Of a DNA stretch of 64,000 bases, positions 2,321 through 63,512 are shown one piece after another. The translations under genes and the position numbers were made by a program. The DNA comes from Candidatus Woesearchaeota archaeon (GTDB taxonomy: Archaea; Nanobdellota; Nanobdellia; Woesearchaeales; UBA10216), in NCBI GenBank assembly GCA_016192915.1, contig JACPTF010000002.1, forward strand, positions 67,530-131,529, in the 5' to 3' direction. Below the pieces are notes generated by a model. The model made no database searches. It had not been told where the DNA came from and saw only the letters and a list, made by a program, of their open reading frames with translations. The stretch's first letter is position 1. Each line of letters opens with the position of its first letter.

Positions 2321-4774
2321 TTGCGAATGAAGGAGTACAAAACTATTACAAGGGTTGCGGGCCCCTTGATTTTTGTTGAGAAAACAGACCCTGTCGGGTA
2401 TGGTGAGCTTGTGAAGATAACACTGCCCAATGGTGGCGTGAAGAGCGGCCAGGTTCTTGACACCAGTGAGGAAATCGTTGTTGTGCAGGTTTTTGAGGGC
2501 ACTTCAGGCATTGACCTTAACTCAAGGGTCAAGTTTCTTGGCGAAACAATCAAGCTGCCTGTTTCTGATGAGCTTCTTGGGAGGATTTTGAATGGCGCGG
2601 GCAAGCCCATTGACGGCGGCCCGGAGGTTGTGCCTGAAGAGCTCATGGAAATCACAGGCGCTGCCATTAATCCTTATGCCAGGGCTAACCCTTCTGATTT
2701 TATCCAGACAGGAATCTCAACCATTGATGGAACAAACACCCTTGTCAGGGGCCAGAAGCTTCCGTTGTTTTCAGGCTCAGGCCTTCCCCACAACGAGATA
2801 GCATTGCAGATTGCGAGGCAGGCGAAAGTTAGGGGGAGTGGTGAGGGCTTTGCCATTGTTTTCGCTGCAATGGGCATTACGAACGAGGAATCACAAAGGT
2901 TCATTTCAGAGTTTGAGCAGACCGGAGCTTTGAAGAGGGCTGTTGTTTTCCTTAACCTAGCTGATGACCCTGCTGTTGAGCGCCTGATTACGCCGAGGAT
3001 GGCCCTCACGGCAGCTGAGTATCTTGCTTTCAGGAAGGGGATGCACGTCCTTGTAATCCTAACTGACATGACTAATTATGCTGAGAGCCTTCGCGAGATT
3101 GGCGCTGCGCGCTCTGAAATCCCTGGAAGGAGGGGCTACCCAGGTTATATGTACAGCGTGGATGGCAGCAGAAGGGTTATTGTAAAGGACCCGGGAGGCT
3201 TTATTAGCGTTATTGAAATCAGCAAACTTTTTGAGATTTTATCGTTCGATGAGGAAGTTGCGTCAACGGACTATGAGGAACGGATTAATGTTGAAGGTTG
3301 GGAAGCTTTAAGCGCAGACAATAATGGAAAGGCCAACTTCAAGCCTATACTGCAAGCTGTTCGCCATAAGTACTCTGGTAAGTTATGCAAAATAACAACT
3401 CAGATGGGAGAGACAATAGTTACCCCTAACCACAGCATTTTCACTGTAAGAAACGGGAAAATTGAGCTATGCGAGGCGGGCAAGCTTGGAGAGGAAGACC
3501 TCATTGCTCACGTTAATAGGATACCAGAAGTCACTGAAAAAAATGTGATGAGCGATTCTCTTGCCAAATTGGCAGGCTACTATGTTTCAGAAGGACACGC
3601 CTTAAGGTATGAAGATAAGGAGAAGAGCTGTTTCTGCCATTACGTAAGAATAGATAACAATTCAAAAGAAGTCATCAGTGAGATTGTGCAAAGCTATGCC
3701 GAGGAGTTTAATGCCACTCCTTCCATATTTGTGTCTGATAAGAGGTCTGGCACAATACGTACCTCCATCGGGGGAAGGAAGTACTATGACTCTTTAGTTA
3801 GCATACTTGGCTGTGGGCATAAGTCAGCATCAAAAAGAGTTCCTAACGTGCTTTTTACAGCATCTACGAATGCAAAGCTCGCATTCTTTAAAGCATACTA
3901 CGCAGGTGATGGGAAGTCACAAGATCCGAGATATAAAGTTAAGCAGTATGATATGGTAACTGTAAGCCCCGGCCTGCGGGACGATTTAATGGTATTGTCT
4001 AGGATTTTGTTCCCAGATAGGATACCCACCTTGTATAAATGGAAGGGCAGAGATGCATGGAAGGTTTATCTGTCAACAAAGCTAAAACAAAAACGCAGTA
4101 TTGTGAATGATGTGATAGGGTGTAAAGTGAAAAAAGTTGAAATGGTTGACCCAACAGAAGAATATGTTTATGACCTATCTGTTGAGGGCAATCAGAACTT
4201 TGTGGATGCTTGCGGCAATATGCTGCTGCATAACACAGACCTCGCCATGCTCTATGAGCGGGCTGGCATGATTAAGGGGAAAAAAGGCAGCATAACCCAG
4301 CTTCCAATCCTGACGATGGTTGGCGATGACATCACCCACCCGATCCCAGACCTTACAGGCTACATCACAGAGGGCCAGATTGTTATCAGCAGGGAGCTCC
4401 ACAGCCGCAACATTTACCCACCGGTTGATGTTTTGCCTTCGCTAAGCAGGCTTATGAACCTGGGCATAGGCAAGGGAAAAACCAGGGATGACCACAAGCA
4501 GGTTTCCGACCAGCTTTACGCTTTTTATGCTGAGGGAAAAGACCTCCGCGGCCTTGTTGCAATAGTTGGCGAGGAGTCTCTTTCGGAGAGGGAGCGCCGC
4601 ATATTGAAGTTCGCAGCTGACTTTGAGGCGAAGTTTGTCAAGCAGGCAAAGGGCGAGGACCGCGATATTGAGCGGACTCTTGAGATTGGCTGGCGGCTTC
4701 TTTCAGAGTTGCCTGAGAACGAGCTCACGAGGATAAGCCCTGAGTTGAGGAAGCAGCACTATGGCAAGCATTAA
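2321..4774 (+). CDS. atpB: A/V-type ATP synthase subunit B, interrupted in frame by a 360-aa intein
   Basis: N-extein 278 aa ending ...[11 protein letters not shown] and C-extein 179 aa starting [11 protein letters not shown] match subunit B; 360 aa inserted between them. Confidence 0.9.
3155..4234 (+). mobile_element. Intein with LAGLIDADG homing-endonuclease domain inside atpB
   Basis: Starts with Ser directly after extein YMY, ends ...LLHN before +1 Thr; two LAGLIDADG-like blocks ([24 protein letters not shown]); length is a multiple of 3. Confidence 0.85.
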
Positions 4775-7786: not shown

Positions 7787-7886
7787 ACCAAATTCGTGCT
7801 GTGCACGAATGGGCCCAGTCGCAAATCGGGCAATAGCCCGATTGCGCAGTCGGCTGCTGCCGACTTGCGGCGCAAGCCGACTTGGG
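7787..7886. repeat. Modular palindromic repeat element, copy 1, intergenic upstream of rpl3
   Basis: Consecutive hairpins: caaattcgtgc-tgt-gcacgaatgg / gggcccagtcgc / aaatcgggc-aat-agcccgatt / cagtcggc-tgctg-ccgacttg / ...gccgacttggg; shares units with copies at 15922, 34645, 56330, 58321, 63463. Confidence 0.8.
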
Positions 7887-13074: not shown

Positions 13075-13536
13075 GTGGTTATGTTGGCAAAAAAAGCAAA
13101 GGAAGGAACAGCATCGGCGCAGCCGATGCGTAGAGACAGCTTGGCTGTCTCTAAAAATGAAAGTGATGCTGTGGGAGTAGCTGCAGCCGCGCCTGCTTCG
13201 AAACCAGGCGGCAGCCAGCATGACGCAACAGGACTTGGCCTTTCTGTTCCGGATGCGCCCTGCACCGACGGAAACTGCCCGTTCCATGGCAGGCTTAGGC
13301 TGCATGGCCGGCGCCTTACCGGTGTTGTAGCATCTGCAAGGATGAGGAGAACGGCCAACATTGTGATTGAGCGGATGGCATTCGTGAAGAAATATGATAG
13401 GTATGACAGGAGAAAGTCCAAGCTGAAGGTGCATAACCCTGAGTGCATATCCGCAAAGGAAGGGGATAAGGTTGATGTTGTTGAGTGCAGGCCACTCAGC
13501 AAGACAAAGCATTTCGTGATTGTGAGGAAATTGTAA
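13075..13536 (+). CDS. rps17: Ribosomal protein S17 with about 45-aa N-terminal extension
   Basis: Core ...CTDGNCPFHGRLRLHGRRLTGVV...HNPECI...ECRPLSKTKHFVIV matches S17. No RNase P Rpp29 gene lies between sui1 and rps17. Confidence 0.85.
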   Translation: MVMLAKKAKEGTASAQPMRRDSLAVSKNESDAVGVAAAAPASKPGGSQHDATGLGLSVPDAPCTDGNCPFHGRLRLHGRRLTGVVASARMRRTANIVIERMAFVKKYDRYDRRKSKLKVHNPECISAKEGDKVDVVECRPLSKTKHFVIVRKL

Positions 13537-15921: not shown

Positions 15922-16019
15922 CCCAAGTCGACAGCAGTCGCAATTCCGCTCATAGCAGAATGCGCAATCGGGCTTGCCCCGATTTGCGACTGGGCCCAGT
16001 CGCCCAAAGGTGGCTTGGG
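15922..16019. repeat. Modular palindromic repeat element, copy 2, between rps14 and rps8
   Basis: cccaagtcgacagcagtcgc / aattccgc..gaatgcgc / caatcgggc-ttg-ccccgattt / perfect 18-bp palindrome gcgactgggcccagtcgc / ...ggcttggg. Confidence 0.8.
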
Positions 16020-16023
16020 TTAT

Positions 16024-16042
16024 AAAAAGGTCAATCAAAAAA
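16024..16042. repeat. Partial copy of second conserved motif (aaaaggtcaatcaaaaaa)
   Basis: Matches aaaagg(g/t)tcaatccaaaaa seen at 33698, 34742, 63513; lies directly 3' of palindromic copy 2. Confidence 0.5.
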
Positions 16043-26368: not shown

Positions 26369-26920
26369 ATGAGTGGCGTGGGCAGCATTATTAAAAAACT
26401 GAAGGAAGGCGACATTATCCTGGTAAGCGAGAAAGGGCTGAAGCACAGCCTGAACAGGGCATTAGGCAGGAGCAGGTGGCACCATATCATGCTATACATA
26501 GGGCAGGGCAGGGTGCTTGAGGCAACCCCGAGAAAAGGCTGCCATATTTCAAAGCTTGACCTGGCAAAAGAGTGTTATCTGGGGTTCAAAGCGCTGCGAC
26601 CTGCCAAGATTAATGATTTATCACGAAGAAAGGTAGCGGCAACAGCTGTCAAGATATTCCTTGGCAGAAAGTTTGACTGGCGGCAACTGATAAAGGTCTT
26701 TTTCAGAAGGCAACTAGTGTTTGCAGGCAATAACGGCAGGGCGTGCAGGCCTGGCTACAAATGCAATTTCGGCAGCGTTATATGCTCAAACCTTGTAGCT
26801 ATGTCATACCACCTGGAAGGCTGCAGCATAAGTGACAAGTGGGCTCCAGAATATGTAATGCCAAGGGATTACGACAAGGTAAAGGAATTTGACATAGTAC
26901 TTGAAAGAAAGCTTGAGTGA
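26369..26920 (+). CDS. Putative permuted papain-fold hydrolase (YiiX/NlpC-P60-like), tandem paralog 1
   Basis: GDIILV...WHHIMLYIG (His block) followed by C.PG.KC....CSNLVAM (Cys block): His-before-Cys order as in the YiiX-type permuted NlpC/P60 fold. Confidence 0.5.
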   Translation: MSGVGSIIKKLKEGDIILVSEKGLKHSLNRALGRSRWHHIMLYIGQGRVLEATPRKGCHISKLDLAKECYLGFKALRPAKINDLSRRKVAATAVKIFLGRKFDWRQLIKVFFRRQLVFAGNNGRACRPGYKCNFGSVICSNLVAMSYHLEGCSISDKWAPEYVMPRDYDKVKEFDIVLERKLE

Positions 26921-27530
26921 TGTTGAGGGAAAAATGCAACTCGGATCAGAGATGAAAAGGCTCAGGGATGCGCATAACCTAATTAAAAGGCTTCGTGAAG
27001 CTGACATCATCCTGGTAAGCGAGAAAGGGCTGCTTCATGACATCAACAGGATGTTGCAAAGGAGCAAGTGGCACCACGTAATGCTATACATAGGGAATGG
27101 CCGCACAATTGAAGCCACCCCGAAAAAAGGCGCTCATATATGCGACCTTATGTATGACCTTACAGAAAAGGAATACTTTGCTTACAAAGTCTTAAGAAAT
27201 AAAAAACTCACCAAAGCTCAAAAGAAGAAAGTGGTAAGCGTGGCACTGAAGTTCTTTTTGGGCAAAAAGTTCTCATGGGTTCAGTATGCGAAAATAGTTT
27301 TAGGCAGGTCGCTGCGCTGGAGAAAGGAAGGCAACAAAAGCCTTGTGTGCAAGCCTGGGCACAAGTGCGTCATTGAAAGCGTTGCGTGCTCAAACATGGT
27401 GGCAATGGCTTATTATGAAGCTGGCTTTCCAATAAGCGAGCGCTACATGCCCGAATACGTTGTGCCTAAGGACTATGAAGAATCGAAAGCGCTTTCTAAA
27501 CTAACAGAAGGCAAGATATTGTCGCGTTAG
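26901..27530 (+). CDS. Putative permuted papain-fold hydrolase (YiiX/NlpC-P60-like), tandem paralog 2
   Basis: About 50% identical to the upstream ORF over the core (ADIILVSEKGL, WHHVMLYIGNG, CSNMVAMAYY, PEYVVPKDY). Confidence 0.5.
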   Translation: MKESLSDVEGKMQLGSEMKRLRDAHNLIKRLREADIILVSEKGLLHDINRMLQRSKWHHVMLYIGNGRTIEATPKKGAHICDLMYDLTEKEYFAYKVLRNKKLTKAQKKKVVSVALKFFLGKKFSWVQYAKIVLGRSLRWRKEGNKSLVCKPGHKCVIESVACSNMVAMAYYEAGFPISERYMPEYVVPKDYEESKALSKLTEGKILSR

Positions 27531-34644: not shown

Positions 34645-34694
34645 CACAATTCCGCCAAGGCGGAATGTGCAATCGGGTTTTCCCCGATTTGCAC
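34645..34694. repeat. Modular palindromic repeat element, copy 3, between rpoD and tRNA-Leu
   Basis: Perfect hairpin cacaattccgcc-aag-gcggaatgtg, then caatcggg-ttttc-cccgatttg; same two units as the in-frame copy inside gatA. Confidence 0.8.
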
Positions 34695-34701
34695 CCTTAT
34701 A

Positions 34702-34841
34702 GCGGGGGTGGCAGAGCCTGGTCAAATGCGCTACCTTGAGGTGACCCTTTTTGGAACAAAAAGGTTCAATCCAAAAAAGTTGAAGGGTTGCGAACGGGTA
34801 GTCCCTTAGTGGGTGCGCGTGTTCGAATCACGTCCCCCGCA
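34702..34841 (+). tRNA. tRNA-Leu(GAG) with 54-nt intron at the canonical 37/38 position
   Basis: Manual fold: acceptor GCGGGGG/CCCCCGC (7 bp), D-arm GCAG...AUGC, anticodon stem CUACC/GGUAG with loop UUGAGG (anticodon GAG), long variable arm UCCCUUAGUGGGUGC, T-arm GCGUG-UUCGAAU-CACGU, discriminator A; CCA not encoded; intron 34742-34795. Confidence 0.8.
34742..34778 (+). repeat. Second conserved motif, copy b, inside the tRNA-Leu intron
   Basis: tgaccctttttggaacaaaaaggttcaatccaaaaaa; same hairpin stem (cctttt/aaaagg) and ttcaatccaaaaa tail as copies a and c. Confidence 0.7.
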
Positions 34842-34863
34842 CTCATAATAAAAGTGAGAAACG

Positions 34864-41166: not shown

Positions 41167-41958
41167 ATGAAAAAAGTAAAAAAGGCGCTTGTTGTATATT
41201 ATGCCAGAAACTACGGCACCCTCAACGTGGTAAAAAAGGCGCTGCAGAAAAACAAAATAGCCGCTTCCTACATTAAAAGGGAAAGTGAATCAGCAATAAA
41301 AAAAGCCGCCCTTAAAGCTGATTGTGCTGTTGTTGTTGGCGGCGATGGAACGCTGCTCAGGGCATCACACTTAATAGAAAGCACCCCTGTCCTTCACGTA
41401 AGCTCCAATTTGAGCATAAACGAAGCATTCTTTGCAAGGGCAACAACAAAAGACATAAGCAGGAAAATAAAACTCCTTACCAAAGGAAAATATAAGCTGC
41501 TGCCGCTGCTGAGGCTTGAAGCTGAAATTAACGGAAAAAAGCTCCCATTCAAGGCCCTTAACGAAGTCTATGCGGGCAGTAAGGAGCCGTATCACACCGC
41601 CCGATATAAACTAATAATCGGCAACAAGACAGAGGAGCAGAAAAGCTCCGGAATCCTGATTTCAACTCCTGCTGGGAGTTATGCGTGGGCAAGAAGCGCA
41701 GGGGGAAGAACCTTGTCGTTGACGGCAAAAAAGATGCAGTTTGTAGTAAGAGAGCCTTATGTTGGAAGGCTCACAAAACCGAAGATGACAAAGGGCGTTC
41801 TGAGCAGCAGCCAGAGCATAACGGTAATTTCAAACATCTGGGAAAGGCACAAAGGGATAGTTGTTGTTGATTCTTACAAAAAGAATTTTGGGTTTAACAA
41901 CGGGGACAAGCTTCTTGTAAAAGCCGCGAAGCAGCCTCTGAATCTGATGGGCTTTTAA
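41167..41958 (+). CDS. nadK: NAD kinase
   Basis: 263 aa; GGDGT motif (VVVGGDGTLL). Confidence 0.85.
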   Translation: MKKVKKALVVYYARNYGTLNVVKKALQKNKIAASYIKRESESAIKKAALKADCAVVVGGDGTLLRASHLIESTPVLHVSSNLSINEAFFARATTKDISRKIKLLTKGKYKLLPLLRLEAEINGKKLPFKALNEVYAGSKEPYHTARYKLIIGNKTEEQKSSGILISTPAGSYAWARSAGGRTLSLTAKKMQFVVREPYVGRLTKPKMTKGVLSSSQSITVISNIWERHKGIVVVDSYKKNFGFNNGDKLLVKAAKQPLNLMGF

Positions 41959-41969
41959 TATCTGTGGCA

Positions 41970-42884
41970 CTATTTACTAAAACGCAGCTGCAGCATCCTC
42001 TTTCCATAAAGCCATGCATAGCCAAAAAGGAACCCAAGCCTCTCGGCAGACTTTGACTTGCCCTCCTCCCGAAAGTTGTAAACAAAAGGAACTTCAGAGA
42101 TGCTAAATCCCGCATTCATGGCCCTGTAAAGAAGCTCGAGGTCAAACTCCCCCCACTTCGAAGGATACCTGAAGTCGAGCGCAAGCAGCTTCGCCCGCCT
42201 TATTGCATGAAAGCCGCCAGTCCAATCCGTAATTCCGTGACCCATCACAAAACGAATCACGCTGTTAAAAAGAACAGTAGCAGCCTTTCTTAAAAAAGGA
42301 GCTTCAATGCCTCCTCCAGCCATAAACCTTGAGGCTGAAACCATGTCAAGATTCTTATCAACAAGATTTTTTATAAGCTCAGGAACCTTGGAAGGAGGAT
42401 GGGATGCGTCAGCATCCATAATTACAACAAGATCGCCCCGTGCGACTTTAACGCCGTCCATAATGGCCGAAAATATGCCCCTTATGTTGTAACGGTGAAC
42501 CGCAGCAACCCTGCCAGACGCGGCGCTCTTATCAATAATTGAAGGTGTTTCGTCCCTTGAGTCGTCATCTACGACAATAATCTCAAAATAATTAATGCCT
42601 GCCGATTCAAGGCTTAAAGACAATGCTCCAATCAGCCTTCCAACATTACCCTCCTCATTATATGTGGGCACAACCACAGAAACAAAATGTTTATTGGCGA
42701 CAGCAGCCACTCTAGAGATGCCTTGCCGCAGCTCAGCTACTGAACCGGCTTCAATATTAACCTTGCCAGACTTGTAAGCGTATCTGGCCGCATTGGTGTC
42801 CTTGCCCGTTGCATTACTCATAATTTCTGGGATAATCCTAAAGTATAAAAATCTACCCACAGAAAAAACTAACAGTAATTTCAA
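41970..42884 (-). CDS. Family 2 glycosyltransferase (dolichyl-phosphate mannose/glucose synthase-like)
   Basis: VSVVVPTYNEEGN...VVDDDSRDET...DADASHPP GT-A fold motifs (DxD). Confidence 0.8.
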   Translation of the reverse strand: MKLLLVFSVGRFLYFRIIPEIMSNATGKDTNAARYAYKSGKVNIEAGSVAELRQGISRVAAVANKHFVSVVVPTYNEEGNVGRLIGALSLSLESAGINYFEIIVVDDDSRDETPSIIDKSAASGRVAAVHRYNIRGIFSAIMDGVKVARGDLVVIMDADASHPPSKVPELIKNLVDKNLDMVSASRFMAGGGIEAPFLRKAATVLFNSVIRFVMGHGITDWTGGFHAIRRAKLLALDFRYPSKWGEFDLELLYRAMNAGFSISEVPFVYNFREEGKSKSAERLGFLFGYAWLYGKRMLQLRFSK

Positions 42885-42993
42885 ACATCTGGGAAAGCCA
42901 CAAAGGCGTTGTCGTCATCTACTCCTACAAGAAAGAGTTCAGGTTCAACAATGGGGACAGGCTTATTGTCAGGGCTTCAAAGCAGTCGCTTAA
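42856..42993 (+). pseudogene. Duplicated 3' fragment of nadK (about 75% nt identity to 41822-41958), no start codon
   Basis: Translates in frame to VISNIWESHKGVVVIYSYKKEFRFNNGDRLIVRASKQSLNLM vs nadK C-terminus VISNIWERHKGIVVVDSYKKNFGFNNGDKLLVKAAKQPLNLMGF; flanks the minus-strand GT2 gene. Confidence 0.7.
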
Positions 42994-42995
42994 CC

Positions 42996-43841
42996 TTATG
43001 TGCCTGCGAGGCCGGCGTTATTATTTTCGTACTCTTGGAGTCTTCCCAATATCCCATCAAGTATTCTTTGGCGCGCTTCAGGCGGTCGCGGTGCACTCCT
43101 AATTCGCGCCTGCAGGTAAGCAAATCTCTCTAACAAACTGAGTGTTGTTTCCCGCCCACCTACAAAAAGCCAAGGATATCTTCGAGGAAAATTTTGCTTA
43201 ATGGATTCAGGCCTCATGCCAAGAATTCCGGCAATAACTTCTATATCCTTGACAACAACCTGGGGGTTTTGCAAGACGCTCACGTATTCAATTTTCGGGA
43301 CGGCAGTCTTGAGTTTAATTCTCGGGCCTGCTCCCGGGGCTTTTAAAACCTTAAAATTCTGCCTCGAATACTGAAACTCCAATGCCAGGGCTGTTTTGCC
43401 CTCTTGAGGTATGATTATTGAACCTAGAAGCGGCGGCGCATGTTCTGTTTCGGGCGTATAGCCAACAATCATAACTTCTGGCAATGAATCAAAGCCGAAC
43501 CTGAAATCTTTAACAGGAAGCTGCATTAAAACGTGCTTTTGCTCTTGCAGTGTGTTGTACAAAGCCACAGCAATGTCCTCTGTGAGCCTTTGAAATTCAA
43601 GGAACTTTTGTGAAAGCGTTGAGCCATCAGGCTGCCCACGCATGCGCAACGAATAAAGGCAGCGCCCGTATGGCATCTTAATCAGACGTGCTTCAGAATA
43701 AGCCATAAAAGGATTTTTAGGGTCAAAAGGCGCGCCAGAAGCCGAAACGTACCCCACACTATGAGAGGTAGTCGCAATTCTTTGAATTTCGGAGAGCTGC
43801 CCTTCAACTAAGTTTTCAAGCCGGACTGATAAGGGATTCAT
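42996..43841 (-). CDS. Hypothetical protein
   Basis: 281 aa; no recognisable motif. Confidence 0.5.
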   Translation of the reverse strand: MNPLSVRLENLVEGQLSEIQRIATTSHSVGYVSASGAPFDPKNPFMAYSEARLIKMPYGRCLYSLRMRGQPDGSTLSQKFLEFQRLTEDIAVALYNTLQEQKHVLMQLPVKDFRFGFDSLPEVMIVGYTPETEHAPPLLGSIIIPQEGKTALALEFQYSRQNFKVLKAPGAGPRIKLKTAVPKIEYVSVLQNPQVVVKDIEVIAGILGMRPESIKQNFPRRYPWLFVGGRETTLSLLERFAYLQARIRSAPRPPEARQRILDGILGRLQEYENNNAGLAGT

Positions 43842-45693: not shown

Positions 45694-46518
45694 ATGGCAG
45701 ATGCTACGACTGTTGCAAAGCTAAAAGAAAAGGCAAAGCAGCTGCGAATTGAGTCAGTTAAGCTCGTTTACCAAGCTGGTTCAGGCCATCCCGGAGGCTC
45801 ACTTTCGGCAGCAGACATAATGGCCGCGCTGTTCTACCACCACATGAAGTACGACCCTAAAAGGCCCGACTGGCCTAGCAGGGACAGGTTCATACTGAGC
45901 AAAGGGCACTGCACACCACTTCTTTACTCTGTTTTTGCTGATGTCGGATACTTCCCCAAAGAAGAACTTGCAACATACAGGAGGCTCGGAAGGCTTACTG
46001 GACACCCAAACCCGAAGTTGCCTGGGGTTGAGATAGCAACAGGCTCGCTTGGGCAGGGGCTCTCTGTCGGGCACGGCATGGCCCTCGCCGGAAAGCTTGA
46101 CAAAAAAGACTTCTACGTTTACGTGCTGCTCGGCGATGGCGAACTGAACGAGGGGCAGGTCTGGGAGGCGGCAATGAGCGCTGCGCAATACAAATCTGAC
46201 CATTTGATTGCGCTAGTTGACAACAATAAAGTTGCGCAGGATAATTTAACTGCAAACCTGAAGAATATTGAGCCTGTTGACAAAAAGTTCGAGGCATTCG
46301 GCTGGCAGACATTCAGGATAAACGGTCATGACATTGCAGCAATAATTGACGCGTTGGCGGCAGCAAAGAAAATACGAGGTAAGCCTGTCATAATAGTTGC
46401 CGACACGATAAAAGGAAAAGGCGTTTCTTACATGGAAGGCAAGCCGGACTGGCACGGCAAGGCGCCAAACGAGGAATTGTTCAGGAAGGCAATGGAAGAA
46501 CTGGAAAAAGGTGGCTAA
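45694..46518 (+). CDS. tkt: Transketolase, N-terminal (TPP-binding) subunit
   Basis: 274 aa; GSGHPGGSLS and GDGELNEG TPP motifs; split transketolase typical of archaea. Confidence 0.9.
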   Translation: MADATTVAKLKEKAKQLRIESVKLVYQAGSGHPGGSLSAADIMAALFYHHMKYDPKRPDWPSRDRFILSKGHCTPLLYSVFADVGYFPKEELATYRRLGRLTGHPNPKLPGVEIATGSLGQGLSVGHGMALAGKLDKKDFYVYVLLGDGELNEGQVWEAAMSAAQYKSDHLIALVDNNKVAQDNLTANLKNIEPVDKKFEAFGWQTFRINGHDIAAIIDALAAAKKIRGKPVIIVADTIKGKGVSYMEGKPDWHGKAPNEELFRKAMEELEKGG

Positions 46519-55393: not shown

Positions 55394-55624
55394 ATGGTCA
55401 TAGACCATGAAAGGGTAAGGAAACAGGCAAAAGCCGTTATGGATGAGTTTGTGAAGGCACTTGATAAAATTGGAGGGGTTTCTGGAGAGGTTGGCATTGA
55501 AAGGGATGAGCAAACAAGGGCTGCGAAGGCAACAAAGCAGGACAGCGGCTTCAGGGGGAGGATGCTTGGAAACGCCCCTAAAAAGGACAGCTCACACATA
55601 ATTGCCGAGAAGAAAAGCTGGTAA
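55394..55624 (+). CDS. gatC: Putative Asp-tRNA(Asn)/Glu-tRNA(Gln) amidotransferase subunit C
   Basis: 76-aa ORF ending 3 nt before gatA; sequence similarity to GatC is weak, call rests mainly on position. Confidence 0.5.
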   Translation: MVIDHERVRKQAKAVMDEFVKALDKIGGVSGEVGIERDEQTRAAKATKQDSGFRGRMLGNAPKKDSSHIIAEKKSW

Positions 55625-55626
55625 AA

Positions 55627-57054
55627 ATGACCTATTCAACAGAAGAAAAAAAATCACTCATTAAGAAAGGCAAAATAACGGCATCGAAAAACATCAAAGG
55701 ATTTCTAAACGCCGTAAGGAAGAAAAATGGCAGCGTGAACGCCATATTGCACGTTAATGAAAATGCTGTTGCCGAGGCAGAGGCTGCTGACAGGAAGATA
55801 AAGGCCGGGAAAGCCGGAAGGCTGGCAGGGCTAGCAATAGTGGTGAAGTCAAACATTTCTGTAACAGGGTTGCCTGTTACTTGCGCTTCGAAAACGCTGG
55901 AAAATTATTACGGGACTTTTGACGCTGACGTTATCGCTAAGATAAAGGCCGAGGACGGCATAATAATCGGGATGGCAAACATGGACGAGTTCGCCTGCGG
56001 AAGCTCAGGAGAGACCTCGGCATTTGGGGCAACACACAACCCTGCGGCCCCGGGAAGAATACCGGGAGGGACAAGCTCTGGCTCAGCTGCGGCTGTCGCG
56101 GCAGGATTCTGCGACCTGGCCCTTGGCTCAGACACAGGCGGCTCAATCAGGAATCCAGCCTCGCATTGCGGCGTTGTAGGCATAAAGCCAAGCTACGGAA
56201 GGGTTTCAAGGTATGGACTGGTTGACATGACAATGAGCTTTGACCAGATAGGGCCTCTCAGCAACGATGCTTACGGGGCAGCACTGCTTATGGAGGTAAT
56301 CGCCGGGAAAAGCGAGAACGACGGCACAACACAATTCCGCGATGAGCGGAATGTGCAATCGGGCAATGCCCGATTTGCAACTGCAAATAAAGTTCCGGAT
56401 TACCTGAAGCTTCTGCAGAATGGCGTGAAGGGGATAAAAATAGGCATGAGCCCGGAATTTGAGGAGATGTGCAGTGACAAAAGGATATATGGGCTGATAG
56501 AAGACGCCGCGCATAAATTTGCTGCTGCAACGAAAAGCACGATAAAACAAATAAAGTTGCCTTATGTTGACATGGCAATACAGGCCTACTACCCGATAGT
56601 TTACGTCGAGTTCTTCTCGGGAACCAGGAAATTTGACGGGAGGAAGTACGGCAAGAAAATAGAAGACAGCTGCGGTGAAGAGGTGCTGAGAAGGATACTT
56701 GGCGGCAGGGAAATATCAAAAGCTGAGCACCACGGCACTTATTACAGAAAGGCGCTGATGGCAAAGAAGCGGATAGCTGAAGGCTTTGAAAGCGCATTCA
56801 AGGATGTTGACATCATAATATCGCCAACAACGCCCATGCTGCCGCACAGGATTGGAACGAAAATAAGTGACCCGATGGTAATGTATGCTTATGACGCTTA
56901 TACCATCCCGGTGAATTTGGCGGGGGTTTGCGCGGGGGTTGTGCCTGCAGGGAAAATAGATGGTATACCTGTTGGGCTGCAGACTATGACGCCTGCTTTC
57001 AGGGAGGAATTGCTGCTTCAGACACTTGCCGGAATAGAAAAACAATCTTTATAA
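55627..57054 (+). CDS. gatA: Asp-tRNA(Asn)/Glu-tRNA(Gln) amidotransferase subunit A, carrying an in-frame 57-nt repeat insertion
   Basis: Amidase signature GGSSGGSAAAVA; 475 aa. Segment TQFRDERNVQSGNARFATA (56329-56385) is encoded by a palindromic repeat copy. Confidence 0.9.
   Translation: MTYSTEEKKSLIKKGKITASKNIKGFLNAVRKKNGSVNAILHVNENAVAEAEAADRKIKAGKAGRLAGLAIVVKSNISVTGLPVTCASKTLENYYGTFDADVIAKIKAEDGIIIGMANMDEFACGSSGETSAFGATHNPAAPGRIPGGTSSGSAAAVAAGFCDLALGSDTGGSIRNPASHCGVVGIKPSYGRVSRYGLVDMTMSFDQIGPLSNDAYGAALLMEVIAGKSENDGTTQFRDERNVQSGNARFATANKVPDYLKLLQNGVKGIKIGMSPEFEEMCSDKRIYGLIEDAAHKFAAATKSTIKQIKLPYVDMAIQAYYPIVYVEFFSGTRKFDGRKYGKKIEDSCGEEVLRRILGGREISKAEHHGTYYRKALMAKKRIAEGFESAFKDVDIIISPTTPMLPHRIGTKISDPMVMYAYDAYTIPVNLAGVCAGVVPAGKIDGIPVGLQTMTPAFREELLLQTLAGIEKQSL
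56330..56380. repeat. Modular palindromic repeat element, copy 5, in frame inside gatA
   Basis: cacaattccgc-gatga-gcggaatgtg + caatcgggc-aat-gcccgatttg; near-identical to intergenic copy 3 (34645). Confidence 0.85.
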
Positions 57055-57078
57055 ACGCTTTCTTGCTCTCTGGAATGC

Positions 57079-58875
57079 ATGTTAAGAACCAATACCTGCG
57101 GGGAGCTGACTGCCAAAGACATAGGCAGGATTGTTACGCTGGCCGGCTGGTGCCATTCCAGAAGGGACCACGGCGGGGTAATCTTTATTGACTTGCGTGA
57201 CAGGTATGGATTAACGCAGGTAGTTCTTGACCCAAGCCACAGCAAAAAAGTCCACAAGCTGGGCGAGCACATAGGGAGGGAGTGGGTCATTTCTGCAAAA
57301 GGCAAGGTGAGGAACAGGCCTAAGGACATGGTCAATCCTAAAATGGCCACGGGTGAAATAGAGGTCCTTGTTGATGAGCTTCAGATAATAACGAAAGCCG
57401 CTGTTCCGCCAATTGAAGTGGATGACAGGGTGGAAGCCTCTGAAGATATCAGGATGAAGTACAAGTACCTTGACCTGAGAAGGCCAATGATGCAGCAACG
57501 GCTGATTTTCAGGCATAAAGCGGCTGAAGCAGTGAGGGAGTACTTCAGCAAAAACAGCTTTATTGAGATTGAAACGCCTCTCCTCGTCAGGTCAACCCCT
57601 GAGGGGGCAAGGGACTATGTCGTTCCAAGCCGGGTTAGTCCTGGAAAGTTCTATGCCCTGCCGCAAAGCCCGCAGCTGTATAAACAGATTCTGATGATAG
57701 CTGGGTTCGATAAGTATTTTCAGCTTGCAAAATGCCTCAGGGATGAGGACTTAAGAGCAGACAGGCAGCCTGAGCACACCCAGATTGACTTTGAGATAAG
57801 CTTCGTTGACGAGAAAGACGTAATGCTGTTCGTTGAGGGGCTCTACAAGCACCTGTTCAAGGAAATGCTGGAGATTGACTTAAAAACGCCGTTCCAAGTG
57901 CTGACGCACGCCGAAACAATGGCAAAATATGGCACTGACAAGCCAGACTTAAGGTTCGGCATGGAACTTACTGATGTAACAGAGATTGTGAGAAAATCAG
58001 ACTTCAAAACATTTGCATCTGAGGAGCAAGTCAAATGCGTGGTTGCTGAAAAAGACTTCAGCAGAAACGAGATAGACGAGCTAATAGGATGGGCAAAGGA
58101 AAATGGCGCAAAAGGGCTTGCGTGGATGAAAGCAACCGACAAAGGGTTGGAGTCATCAATCGTAAAGTTCTTCAGCACAGAAATACAGAAGCAGCTGCTT
58201 CTGAAAACAAAGGCAAAGAAGGGCTCGGTTCTGTTCTTCGTTGCAGACAGCAAGAAAAAGGTTGCGGAAGTCCTTGGAAAACTAAGGGTTGAGCTGGGGC
58301 AAAGGTTTGGGCTGATACCCAAATCGGCCGCTACCGATTGGGCCCAGTCGCAGCAGCGACTTGGGAATGACAAGGAATTCAAGTTCTGCTGGGTAGTTGC
58401 TTTTCCTTTGTTTGAATGGAATGCTGACGTGAATAGGTGGGAGGCAGCGCACCACATGTTCACATCGCCAAAGCCTGAGCACGCAGATTTGCTTGAGAAA
58501 GACCCGGGTAAGGTTCTCGGAAACCTTTACGACCTCGTGCTCAACGGAACAGAGTTGGGTTCTGGCTCAATACGCATTAACAGCCCAGATCTGCAGGAAA
58601 GGGTGATGAAGGTTGTTGGCTTAAGCCATGAAGCTGCCCAGGCAAAGTTTGGGTTTCTTCTTGAGGCATACAAGTTTGGAGCTCCTGTTCATGGTGGGAT
58701 GGGGATAGGATTTGACAGGACAGTAGCGCTCATGCAGGGGCTGCACGACATAAGGGAGGTTATTGCTTTTCCGAAAAACAAAAAGGCTGAGAGTCCGATG
58801 GACGGCTCGCCATCAGAAGTTGAAGAGAGGCAGCTTAAGGAGCTGCACATCAAGAGTGATGTGGTTGGAAAATGA
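57079..58875 (+). CDS. aspS: Aspartate--tRNA ligase, bacterial type (with GAD insertion domain), carrying an in-frame repeat insertion
   Basis: 598 aa; class II motifs; bacterial-type length. Adjacent gatCA suggests the non-discriminating enzyme. Segment KSAATDWAQSQQRLGN is encoded by a repeat copy. Confidence 0.9.
   Translation: MLRTNTCGELTAKDIGRIVTLAGWCHSRRDHGGVIFIDLRDRYGLTQVVLDPSHSKKVHKLGEHIGREWVISAKGKVRNRPKDMVNPKMATGEIEVLVDELQIITKAAVPPIEVDDRVEASEDIRMKYKYLDLRRPMMQQRLIFRHKAAEAVREYFSKNSFIEIETPLLVRSTPEGARDYVVPSRVSPGKFYALPQSPQLYKQILMIAGFDKYFQLAKCLRDEDLRADRQPEHTQIDFEISFVDEKDVMLFVEGLYKHLFKEMLEIDLKTPFQVLTHAETMAKYGTDKPDLRFGMELTDVTEIVRKSDFKTFASEEQVKCVVAEKDFSRNEIDELIGWAKENGAKGLAWMKATDKGLESSIVKFFSTEIQKQLLLKTKAKKGSVLFFVADSKKKVAEVLGKLRVELGQRFGLIPKSAATDWAQSQQRLGNDKEFKFCWVVAFPLFEWNADVNRWEAAHHMFTSPKPEHADLLEKDPGKVLGNLYDLVLNGTELGSGSIRINSPDLQERVMKVVGLSHEAAQAKFGFLLEAYKFGAPVHGGMGIGFDRTVALMQGLHDIREVIAFPKNKKAESPMDGSPSEVEERQLKELHIKSDVVGK
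58321..58365. repeat. Modular palindromic repeat element, copy 6, in frame inside aspS
   Basis: ccgattgggcccagtcgc-agcag-cgacttggg; same units as intergenic copies 1, 2 and 7. Confidence 0.85.
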
Positions 58876-63462: not shown

Positions 63463-63512
63463 CCCCCAATTCGCTTTGGCGAATGGGCCCAGTCGACGCA
63501 AGTCAACTTGGG
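63463..63512. repeat. Modular palindromic repeat element, copy 7, directly after the mcm stop
   Basis: ccaattcgc-tttg-gcgaatgg + gcccagtcgacgcaagtcaacttggg. Confidence 0.75.

Follow-up and report, generated by a model that had tools for sequence, protein, structure and literature searches.

The genes gatA and aspS, which adjoin each other in a 64,000-nucleotide (nt) stretch of DNA from a groundwater woesearchaeote (Woesearchaeota, DPANN), each contain one copy of a short palindromic repeat inserted in frame. We call this whole stretch the window, and coordinates are positions in it unless a locus label (L004 etc.) is given. The gatA gene (55627-57054, forward strand) encodes amidotransferase subunit A, with 475 amino acids (aa) compared to ~459 aa in relatives, and aspS (57079-58875, forward strand) encodes a bacterial-type aspartyl-tRNA synthetase (AspRS) with a GAD insertion domain, with 598 aa compared to ~582-584 aa in relatives. 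Directly upstream of gatA there is a small gene in the gatC position (55394-55624, forward strand) that encodes 76 aa, has no Pfam match and is uninterrupted in the window. The cluster lies in housekeeping surroundings, with a translin-like gene, a Ham1-like gene, TBP and MCM, and the top protein matches carry the label Candidatus Woesearchaeota. Three relatives that are syntenic with the window at gatA-aspS (L004, L005 and L006; loci fetched through gatA) were used for comparison.

The inserts in gatA and aspS

The insert in gatA is an A-B type double-hairpin element at 56330-56377 on the forward strand. Its 48 nt encode QFRDERNVQSGNARFA (residues 236-251) and are laid out as CA-CAATTCCGC-gatga-GCGGAATG-TG-CAATCGGGC-aat-GCCCGATTTG. 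The peptide fills the sole 16-column gap of the GatA alignment and is absent in all 24 homologs (64-89% identity). A nucleotide alignment with the gatA DNA of L004, L005 and L006 gives a clean 48-nt gap at the same place, and the empty site in the relatives reads ..AA-CA-AC..; because CA is found at both ends, the boundary of the insert can be shifted by 2 nt (56332-56379 is equivalent). The insert in aspS is a double-hairpin element of a CCC/GGG type at 58318-58365 on the forward strand. Its 48 nt encode PKSAATDWAQSQQRLG (residues 414-429), with the layout CC-CAAATCGG-ccgcta-CCGATTG-GGCC-CAGTCGC-agca-GCGACTTG-GG. The peptide is a 16-residue gap in 54 of 54 aligned AspRS homologs, and the aspS DNA of the same three relatives has a clean 48-nt gap at the insert in a nucleotide alignment.

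An original prediction, made from the letters of the window alone, had proposed that two copies of a repeat lie within coding sequence and keep the frame, and the exact 48-nt, 16-residue insertions bear this out. The extents needed correction: the gap in the relatives' DNA reduces the gatA insert from the proposed 57 nt at 56329-56385, while the aspS insert, correctly located in that gene, had been given as ~45-48 nt at 58321-58365 and is exactly 48 nt. Loops of 19 and 16 residues had been expected to be unique to this genome; they are indeed missing from the homologs, but both have 16 residues. The empty sites in close relatives also show that the loops are, as proposed, inserted repeats and not ancestral. 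The frame is preserved because the net insertion is 48 nt, and not through selection on the gatA and aspS copies.

The gatA insert and an intergenic copy at 34645-34693 are alike at all stem positions, with differences confined to the two loops, as might be expected from the near-identity claimed originally. A third copy (15939-15988) is also alike in essentially all stem positions. The similarity to intergenic copies withstands a statistical check, the combined gatA-insert motif having a chance expectation of 0.00. Both inserts fold as two hairpins (z = -4.0 to -4.85 for the one in gatA). The gatA insert was found in the single-run assemblies SRR12113418, SRR12113426 and SRR12113428 and in the NCBI metagenome-assembled genome; its presence in three independent run assemblies means that it is not an assembly artefact. 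Between them, the independent assemblies and the empty sites rule out the assembly-artefact and ancestral-loop readings of the gatA and aspS inserts. An intein reading of the inserts was also rejected.

One of the relatives has an unusual gatA locus in its own right. Over roughly 630 nt from the beginning of gatA (55627-56290), L006 (GCA_964491245.1, CAZBFZ010000045.1) matches the window with 100% identity and then becomes L004-like (it is 98.6% identical to L004 overall). The switch lies ~45-70 nt upstream of the point where the window has its gatA insert, and L006 lacks the insert. This makes L006 a natural recombinant or else a co-assembly that is chimeric.

At the protein level, the GatA insert falls in a gap that separates ...NDATT from VNRK... 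in Thermotoga GatA (2GI3, 3AL0), in a segment that is poorly conserved among homologs. In AspRS, the conserved WV(V/I)DFPL segment directly follows the insert, which is located in a gap relative to 6WOM and 1EFW. The sites correspond to about residues 227/228 of T. maritima GatA (3AL0) and 412-414 of T. thermophilus AspRS (1EFW). We take the AspRS site to be the point at which the chain returns from the GAD insertion domain to the catalytic core in bacterial-type AspRS. In AlphaFold2 models, the predicted local distance difference test (pLDDT) value is <50 for GatA residues 233-254 and for AspRS residues 416-431; the flanks of the AspRS insert have pLDDT 84-92, and the GatA model is mediocre (mean pLDDT 64). 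The suggestion that the extra residues sit between conserved blocks thus finds support, in that both sites are in poorly conserved linkers with pLDDT <50 between confident flanks. The models are consistent with the insert sites being surface loops, with the exposure itself a prediction. If the inserts are translated, the predicted junction-spanning peptides would be TTQFRDER, NARFATANK, FGLIPK, SAATDWAQSQQR and LGNDKEFK, or, as longer strings, ...NDGTTQFRDER... and ...FGLIPKSAATDWAQSQQR....

Architecture and distribution of the element

The unit is made up of two short, imperfect hairpins that mirror each other. Hairpin 1 opens with CAAnT, closes with AnTG and has one extra A on the 5' arm; hairpin 2 opens with CAnT, closes with AnTTG and has one extra T on the 3' arm, and the reverse complement of the element has an unchanged layout. 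The consensus, CGCAATTCCGC..GCGGAATGCGCAATCGGG..CCCGATTTGCG, contains neither a GTAG nor a CGTC tag and its feet are CAAnT/AnTTG. There were 42 hairpin pairs in ~260 kb of related sequence; measured from CAA to TTG, 32 of these have a core of 46 nt, across differing stem sequences. The net insertion is 48 nt in all reconstructable cases.

The two hairpins are separated by a spacer of 2 nt, or of 4 nt in one subtype, whose complement is found in the dinucleotides flanking the element on either side. Put another way, the dinucleotide before the element is the same as the dinucleotide after it, and in 34 of 40 copies the spacer is the reverse complement of both. Five flank/spacer/flank classes occur: CG/CG/CG, CA/TG/CA, TG/CA/TG, AG/CT/AG and CT/AG/CT. 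The 4-nt-spacer subtype has CC/GGCC/GG. When 25 A-B copies were aligned, the flank and spacer positions were the sole stem positions that vary repeatedly; the flank/spacer pairing is nonetheless kept in 23 of 23 distinct A-B sequences, with compensatory changes in 4-5 of the 23 at each of the four pairs. The target already holds one flank dinucleotide (CA at the empty gatA site; exactly one CG in the reconstructed host hairpins), which suggests that the element integrates where the target matches its own junction dinucleotide. Because the flank repeat co-varies with the internal spacer, it is unlike an ordinary target duplication.

On circular permutation, each insert folds into a single uninterrupted stem of 19-20 bp that bears two 1-nt bulges. 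The corresponding fold energies are -20.5 and -20.8 kcal/mol (z ~ -7.5), compared to -16.7 and -15.3 for the linear forms. Since the circularised 48-mer is one continuous stem, a 48-nt circle would be a closed dumbbell.

The elements are also depleted in stop codons. An average of 5.15 of the six frames is open per element, against 3.42 in shuffles, and all six frames are stop-free in 20 of 40 elements, against 2.7% of shuffles. With a net 48 nt and stems that are nearly stop-free in six frames, insertion into a gene would therefore yield an intact protein with 16 extra residues.

Besides gatA and aspS, the family is present at four intergenic sites in the window, so that two of the six insertion loci are coding. 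The window has 10 signature hairpins against 0.14 in shuffles, and 5 adjacent hairpin pairs against 0.0. The Woesearchaeota loci contain 12 hairpin pairs in 102 kb, whereas unrelated (non-Woesearchaeota) genomes contain 0 in 760 kb. The elements were matched neither by default ARAGORN nor by Rfam, at gathering or E-value thresholds.

Of the intergenic sites, two hold single elements. The A-B copy at 34645-34693 (forward strand) lies ~55 nt past a stop codon, and an intron-containing tRNA gene stands just downstream of it. A 48-nt pair of the CCC/GGG type (63465-63512) begins 2 nt past the MCM stop codon, and L004 has no element at the equivalent site. The other two are composites, reflecting a tendency of elements to insert into hairpins of their own family. 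Between rps14 and rps8 (15922-16019), a 48-nt A-B element (15939-15986) is nested in the first hairpin of an outer pair whose hairpins are CCCAAGTCGAC..GTCGACTGGG and CCCAGTCGCC..GGTGGCTTGGG. Upstream of rpl3 (7788-7886), a 48-nt pair (7820-7867), CAAATCGGGC..GCCCGATTG-CG-CAGTCGGC..GCCGACTTG, is nested in the 5' arm of the second hairpin of the outer pair. At both composites the host hairpin is perfect again once the inner 48 nt are deleted.

A possible divergent family member (13108-13153) consists of two adjoining hairpins, 46 nt in all, in the 5' part, or a putative N-terminal extension, of the rps17 open reading frame (ORF; 13075-13536). The hairpins would read GTASAQPMRRDSLAVS (13105-13152) in the putative extension of S17. 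The rps17-type hairpin (GCATCGGC..GCCGATGC) is a host hairpin for A-B insertions in other genomes, and is found in the same frame (..TASAE[A-B insert]PMRRGS..) within an NFACT gene on L127. The rps17 hairpins are possibly a third in-frame insertion in the window. A hairpin within the transketolase gene (46183-46213) was rejected as a family member, being native conserved sequence.

Several other features of the window were recorded alongside these copies. Short-read single-run contigs of the source population (L001-L003, L142) end at or near repeats, and L142 begins within the 7788-7886 composite; the family may fragment assemblies of these genomes. The motif AAAGG(G/T)TCAATC(A/C)AAAA occurs at 16025, 20558 (reverse strand), 33714, 34760 and 63522 (5 copies against 0.19 expected). 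Three of its copies are ~15-60 nt upstream of a gene start, so that it looks promoter-like, and hairpin elements often abut it, both in the window and in L017, L070, L016 and L130. The tRNA gene next to the intergenic A-B copy (34702-34842, with a predicted 43-nt intron) was found by an ARAGORN intron search only and is missed by default ARAGORN and by Rfam. Oddly, a copy of the promoter-like motif lies within or beside the predicted intron, which could hint at a split tRNA or a separately transcribed 3' half. Elsewhere, the gene for the V/A-type ATPase B subunit (2321-4774) owes its 817 aa to an intein, itself equipped with a homing-endonuclease domain of the LAGLIDADG type (Pfam Intein_splicing 324-638, LAGLIDADG_3 414-493). 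Two pairs of diverged duplications (26369-27530 and 41819-43003) are 73-75% identical over 134-158 nt. The former spans adjoining ORFs, of which the first is matched weakly, below the cut-off, by NlpC/P60 and C92 amidase; the latter takes in the end of the 41167-41958 ORF as well as a gene for a family-2 glycosyltransferase beside an unassigned ORF.

Beyond the window, a single-hairpin pattern with 17 specified bases was scanned over 185,579 species genomes. The matches were mostly chance single matches in bacteria, with ten informative loci, all from five groundwater Woesearchaeota genomes and all with the hairpins again paired. A pattern specific for A-B matched 21 metagenome contigs. At least 7 of ~19 distinct metagenomic A-B copies are within ORFs that have Pfam domains or are >200 aa. 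The in-frame host genes, with Pfam domains that span the element or are split by it, include Radical_SAM, Metallophos_2, FAD_binding_3, NFACT-R_1 and Asn_synthase, and there are nested in-frame inserts in the Pfam-supported hosts DEAD/Lhr helicase (a composite) and GDP_Man_Dehyd epimerase. When a phosphodiesterase with an element was compared to the solved structure of MJ0936, there was an exact 16-residue gap. The gatC-position gene that is uninterrupted in the window has an independent 48-nt in-frame insert in L005, giving 92 aa instead of 76. The second hairpin of this insert is identical at 23 of 23 positions to that of the aspS insert of the window, and its peptide, PTSATVDGAQSQQRLG, is read in the same frame as the aspS insert. 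Across host genes, all six frames of the element are used and give unrelated peptides.

Scans of viral contigs left the A-B pair unmatched and gave one chance match to the other pattern, in a high-GC phage helicase gene; without a real match there is no virus link. Searching a protein database with a concatenated six-frame element peptide produced no scorable candidates. A 31-residue element-encoded peptide, searched against 1.84 billion representatives, had a chance fungal ankyrin protein as its sole match, a search that is underpowered for such short peptides.

Comparison with known repeats and mobile elements

The original prediction drew an analogy to the Rickettsia palindromic elements (RPEs), which is apt for behaviour and does not extend to membership. 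RPEs are bacterial, ~100-150 bp long and encode a conserved peptide in each family (PMC10969869, summarising Ogata et al. 2000, 2002). Both systems have a palindromic repeat in frame within unrelated, often essential genes, giving a peptide compatible with the fold, as well as intergenic copies, and both are found in the small gene-dense genome of a host-dependent microbe. In-frame insertion that adds residues was found here in gatA, aspS, the L005 gatC-position gene and at least seven further Pfam-supported genes. What sets the Woesearchaeota element apart is that it adds 48 nt, is archaeal and uses all six frames to give unrelated peptides, and that it is built of two mirror-image bulged hairpins with variable loops and nests in its own family. 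By analogy, it can be seen as the archaeal counterpart of the "protein-coding palindromes" known mainly from Rickettsia.

The element was also supposed to be undescribed in archaea. This appears to be so: we found no paper on in-frame palindromes in archaea or DPANN, nor any that combines RPE-type elements with DPANN, within an incomplete coverage of the literature that leaves a prior description possible. [quoted passage not shown]

Repetitive extragenic palindromes (REPs) and their BIME and REPIN arrangements are similar in being short, bulged, imperfect palindromes in inverted doublets, with many copies, conserved stems and variable loops or spacers. They too have intergenic copies just past genes, and REP hairpins are known insertion targets of other elements. 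The foot of a REP hairpin bears the tetranucleotide GTAG or CGTC (PMC3733652, PMC6006769), and reports of the TnpA subclasses that go with REPs come from Bacteria only (PMC6006769). These elements are mobilised by RAYT (TnpA-REP) transposases, Y1 HUH enzymes whose single-copy gene usually has REPs on its flanks. REPINs are ~100 nt, extragenic and reported as undetected in archaea (bioRxiv 10.1101/2021.07.10.451892), whereas a large fraction of the Woesearchaeota copies is intragenic.

Elements of the IS200/IS605 type have subterminal hairpins, guide base pairing by the hairpin foot that selects cleavage and target sites, a circular single-strand intermediate and seamless integration (PMC6006769), and theirs is the sole Y1 transposase class known in archaea. 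The Woesearchaeota element has hairpins at both ends and a guide-like covariation of spacer and flanks, which may be comparable. It differs in that known miniature derivatives (e.g. haloarchaeal PATEs) are several-fold larger, that IS200/IS605 hairpins have the same orientation on one strand rather than being mirror images, and that IS200/IS605 targets are tetra- or pentanucleotides differing between left and right, rather than a single dinucleotide on both flanks that is complementary to the spacer.

MITEs are likewise non-autonomous, multicopy and small, and a Woesearchaeal genome is among the archaeal genomes with the highest MITE density in a census of elements of 50-800 bp, in which ~89% of archaeal MITEs are intergenic and in-frame genic copies are undescribed (PMC11602168). 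The Woesearchaeota element adds 48 nt. A classical MITE combines terminal inverted repeats with an arbitrary target-site duplication, whereas here the flank pairs with the spacer in 34 of 40 copies and the CCC/GGG subtype has no direct flank repeat.

Integration at a matching dinucleotide recalls yet another group of enzymes. With serine recombinases (such as IS607-type transposases) and the IS110 family, a circular donor integrates at a shared 2-nt core, so that a copy of the core ends up on either side and the net gain is the length of the circle; REP hairpins are frequent targets of IS110-family elements. To our knowledge, no 48-nt substrate has been described for serine or IS110-type enzymes. 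The likeness is a mechanistic analogy alone, as no such gene was found near the elements.

Origin and possible mobility of the element

The best reading of these results is that the element belongs to one clade of groundwater Woesearchaeota, and that it is a non-autonomous mobile selfish element that is tolerated in frame, to which we give a probability of about 0.8. An alternative is that the repeats are cis elements of benefit to the host (mRNA stabilisers, terminators or protein-binding sites, roles that have been suggested for REPs), with the genic copies tuning expression or mRNA decay. Intergenic copies that stand directly past stop codons and beside a promoter-like motif would fit such a role, as would stems that are invariant across 25 copies from many genomes and an orthologous intragenic copy that is 100% conserved in a host gene diverged to ~79% identity. 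The three different insertions in the same three-gene cluster (gatC-position, gatA and aspS) in two genomes could be read in the same way, but this clustering reflects sampling, the loci having been fetched through gatA. Presence is also sporadic, with the closest relatives lacking the inserts, and copies nest and turn up in unrelated genes in every orientation and frame, which is the pattern of transposition. We consider a cis-regulatory role unlikely.

It is very unlikely that the inserts are excised from the RNA in the manner of introns or passed over by translational bypass, leaving mature GatA and AspRS without the extra residues. As RNA, the inserts do fold into very stable hairpins, a splicing endonuclease exists in archaea and the window contains an intron-containing tRNA; moreover, most element frames are stop-free anyway, so that open coding copies are weak evidence for translation. 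A bulge-helix-bulge, however, has two 3-nt bulges around a 4-bp helix, and the inserts are two plain hairpins with 1-nt bulges, with the exon junctions outside any 3-nt bulges. No Rfam family matches the elements, and a net 48 nt in all reconstructable cases with six-frame stop depletion is expected of sequence that is read through, while a spliced element needs neither. Loop indels are common a priori and L006 is chimeric or recombinant near the gatA site, so one might also suppose lineage-specific loop expansions or assembly artefacts that are unrelated to any repeat. Given the stem-for-stem nucleotide identity to intergenic copies, the same 48-nt size of both inserts, the recovery of the gatA insert from three single-run assemblies as well as the NCBI genome, and the recurrence of the element in other genes and genomes, we regard this as having a negligible chance of being correct.

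Several observations weigh against a mobile selfish element. One comes from orthologous MJ0936-like phosphodiesterase genes (L107 2438-2487 and L121 1305-1354), where the DNA is ~79% identical and the element is 50/50 identical at the same site. Under divergence equal to that of the host gene, the chance of this is ~1e-5. A decaying selfish insert would not predict such identity, which suggests site-specific re-insertion, gene conversion or selection. The aspS-type (CCC/GGG) insert ends in CC and GG with no flanking direct dinucleotide, and thus the 2-nt-match rule may not be valid for every subtype. Pfam gave no transposase or recombinase among the 10 unassigned ORFs of the window, and a motif scan (DH[VI]H...Y[IV]xNQ) over ~259 kb of related sequence gave no IS200-type TnpA; neither a RAYT gene nor a full-length IS was seen by these two routes. 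The GTAG/CGTC tag of the REPs is lacking too, with CAAnT/AnTTG in its place. Finally, that the inserts are translated and tolerated as 16-residue loops is something we infer.

A mobile selfish element could work as follows. Each insertion would lengthen the target by exactly 48 nt, at a dinucleotide that is the same as the terminal one of the element, which keeps the reading frame, and the protein bearing the insert would survive where this falls in a tolerant linker or loop. The moving form might be single-stranded or a hairpin, perhaps a closed dumbbell circle of 48 nt, whose head-to-tail junction would read ...CCCGATTTG-CA-CAATTCCGC.... Integration by the 2-nt match would presumably need a recombinase acting in trans, which could be IS200/IS605- or RAYT-like (HUH) or of a serine or IS110 type. 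The stems would be kept by the need for recognition, leaving the loops to drift.

The hairpin ends, the conserved bulge, the guide-like pairing adjacent to the foot, the seamless integration and a possible circle recall the chemistry of IS200/IS605 and REP/RAYT (PMC6006769). On this analogy, an HUH single-strand mechanism specifically may be put forward as a tentative candidate. A bolder and rather doubtful proposal is that the element represents an unrecognised class of minimal transposon adapted to the genes of ultra-compact DPANN genomes, in which a 48-nt closed single-stranded dumbbell, a 2-nt target match and a non-RAYT enzyme would be combined, and in which the length and the stop-free frames would be adaptations at the level of the element. 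If this were true, the core proteins of these archaea would continually be seeded with 16-residue loops.

Through the inserts, phylogenetic markers such as tRNA synthetases, and possibly ribosomal proteins, acquire strain-specific indels. The element is among the smallest mobile units described, and its clean rules (a 48-nt insertion, mirror-image bulged hairpins and a three-way dinucleotide covariation) should allow co-occurrence across genomes to reveal the mobilising enzyme. The finding would extend "protein-coding palindromes", which have been seen as a peculiarity of Rickettsia, to the Archaea. Their recurrence in the small, gene-dense genome of a host-dependent organism suggests a general route for the survival of selfish DNA where intergenic space is scarce.

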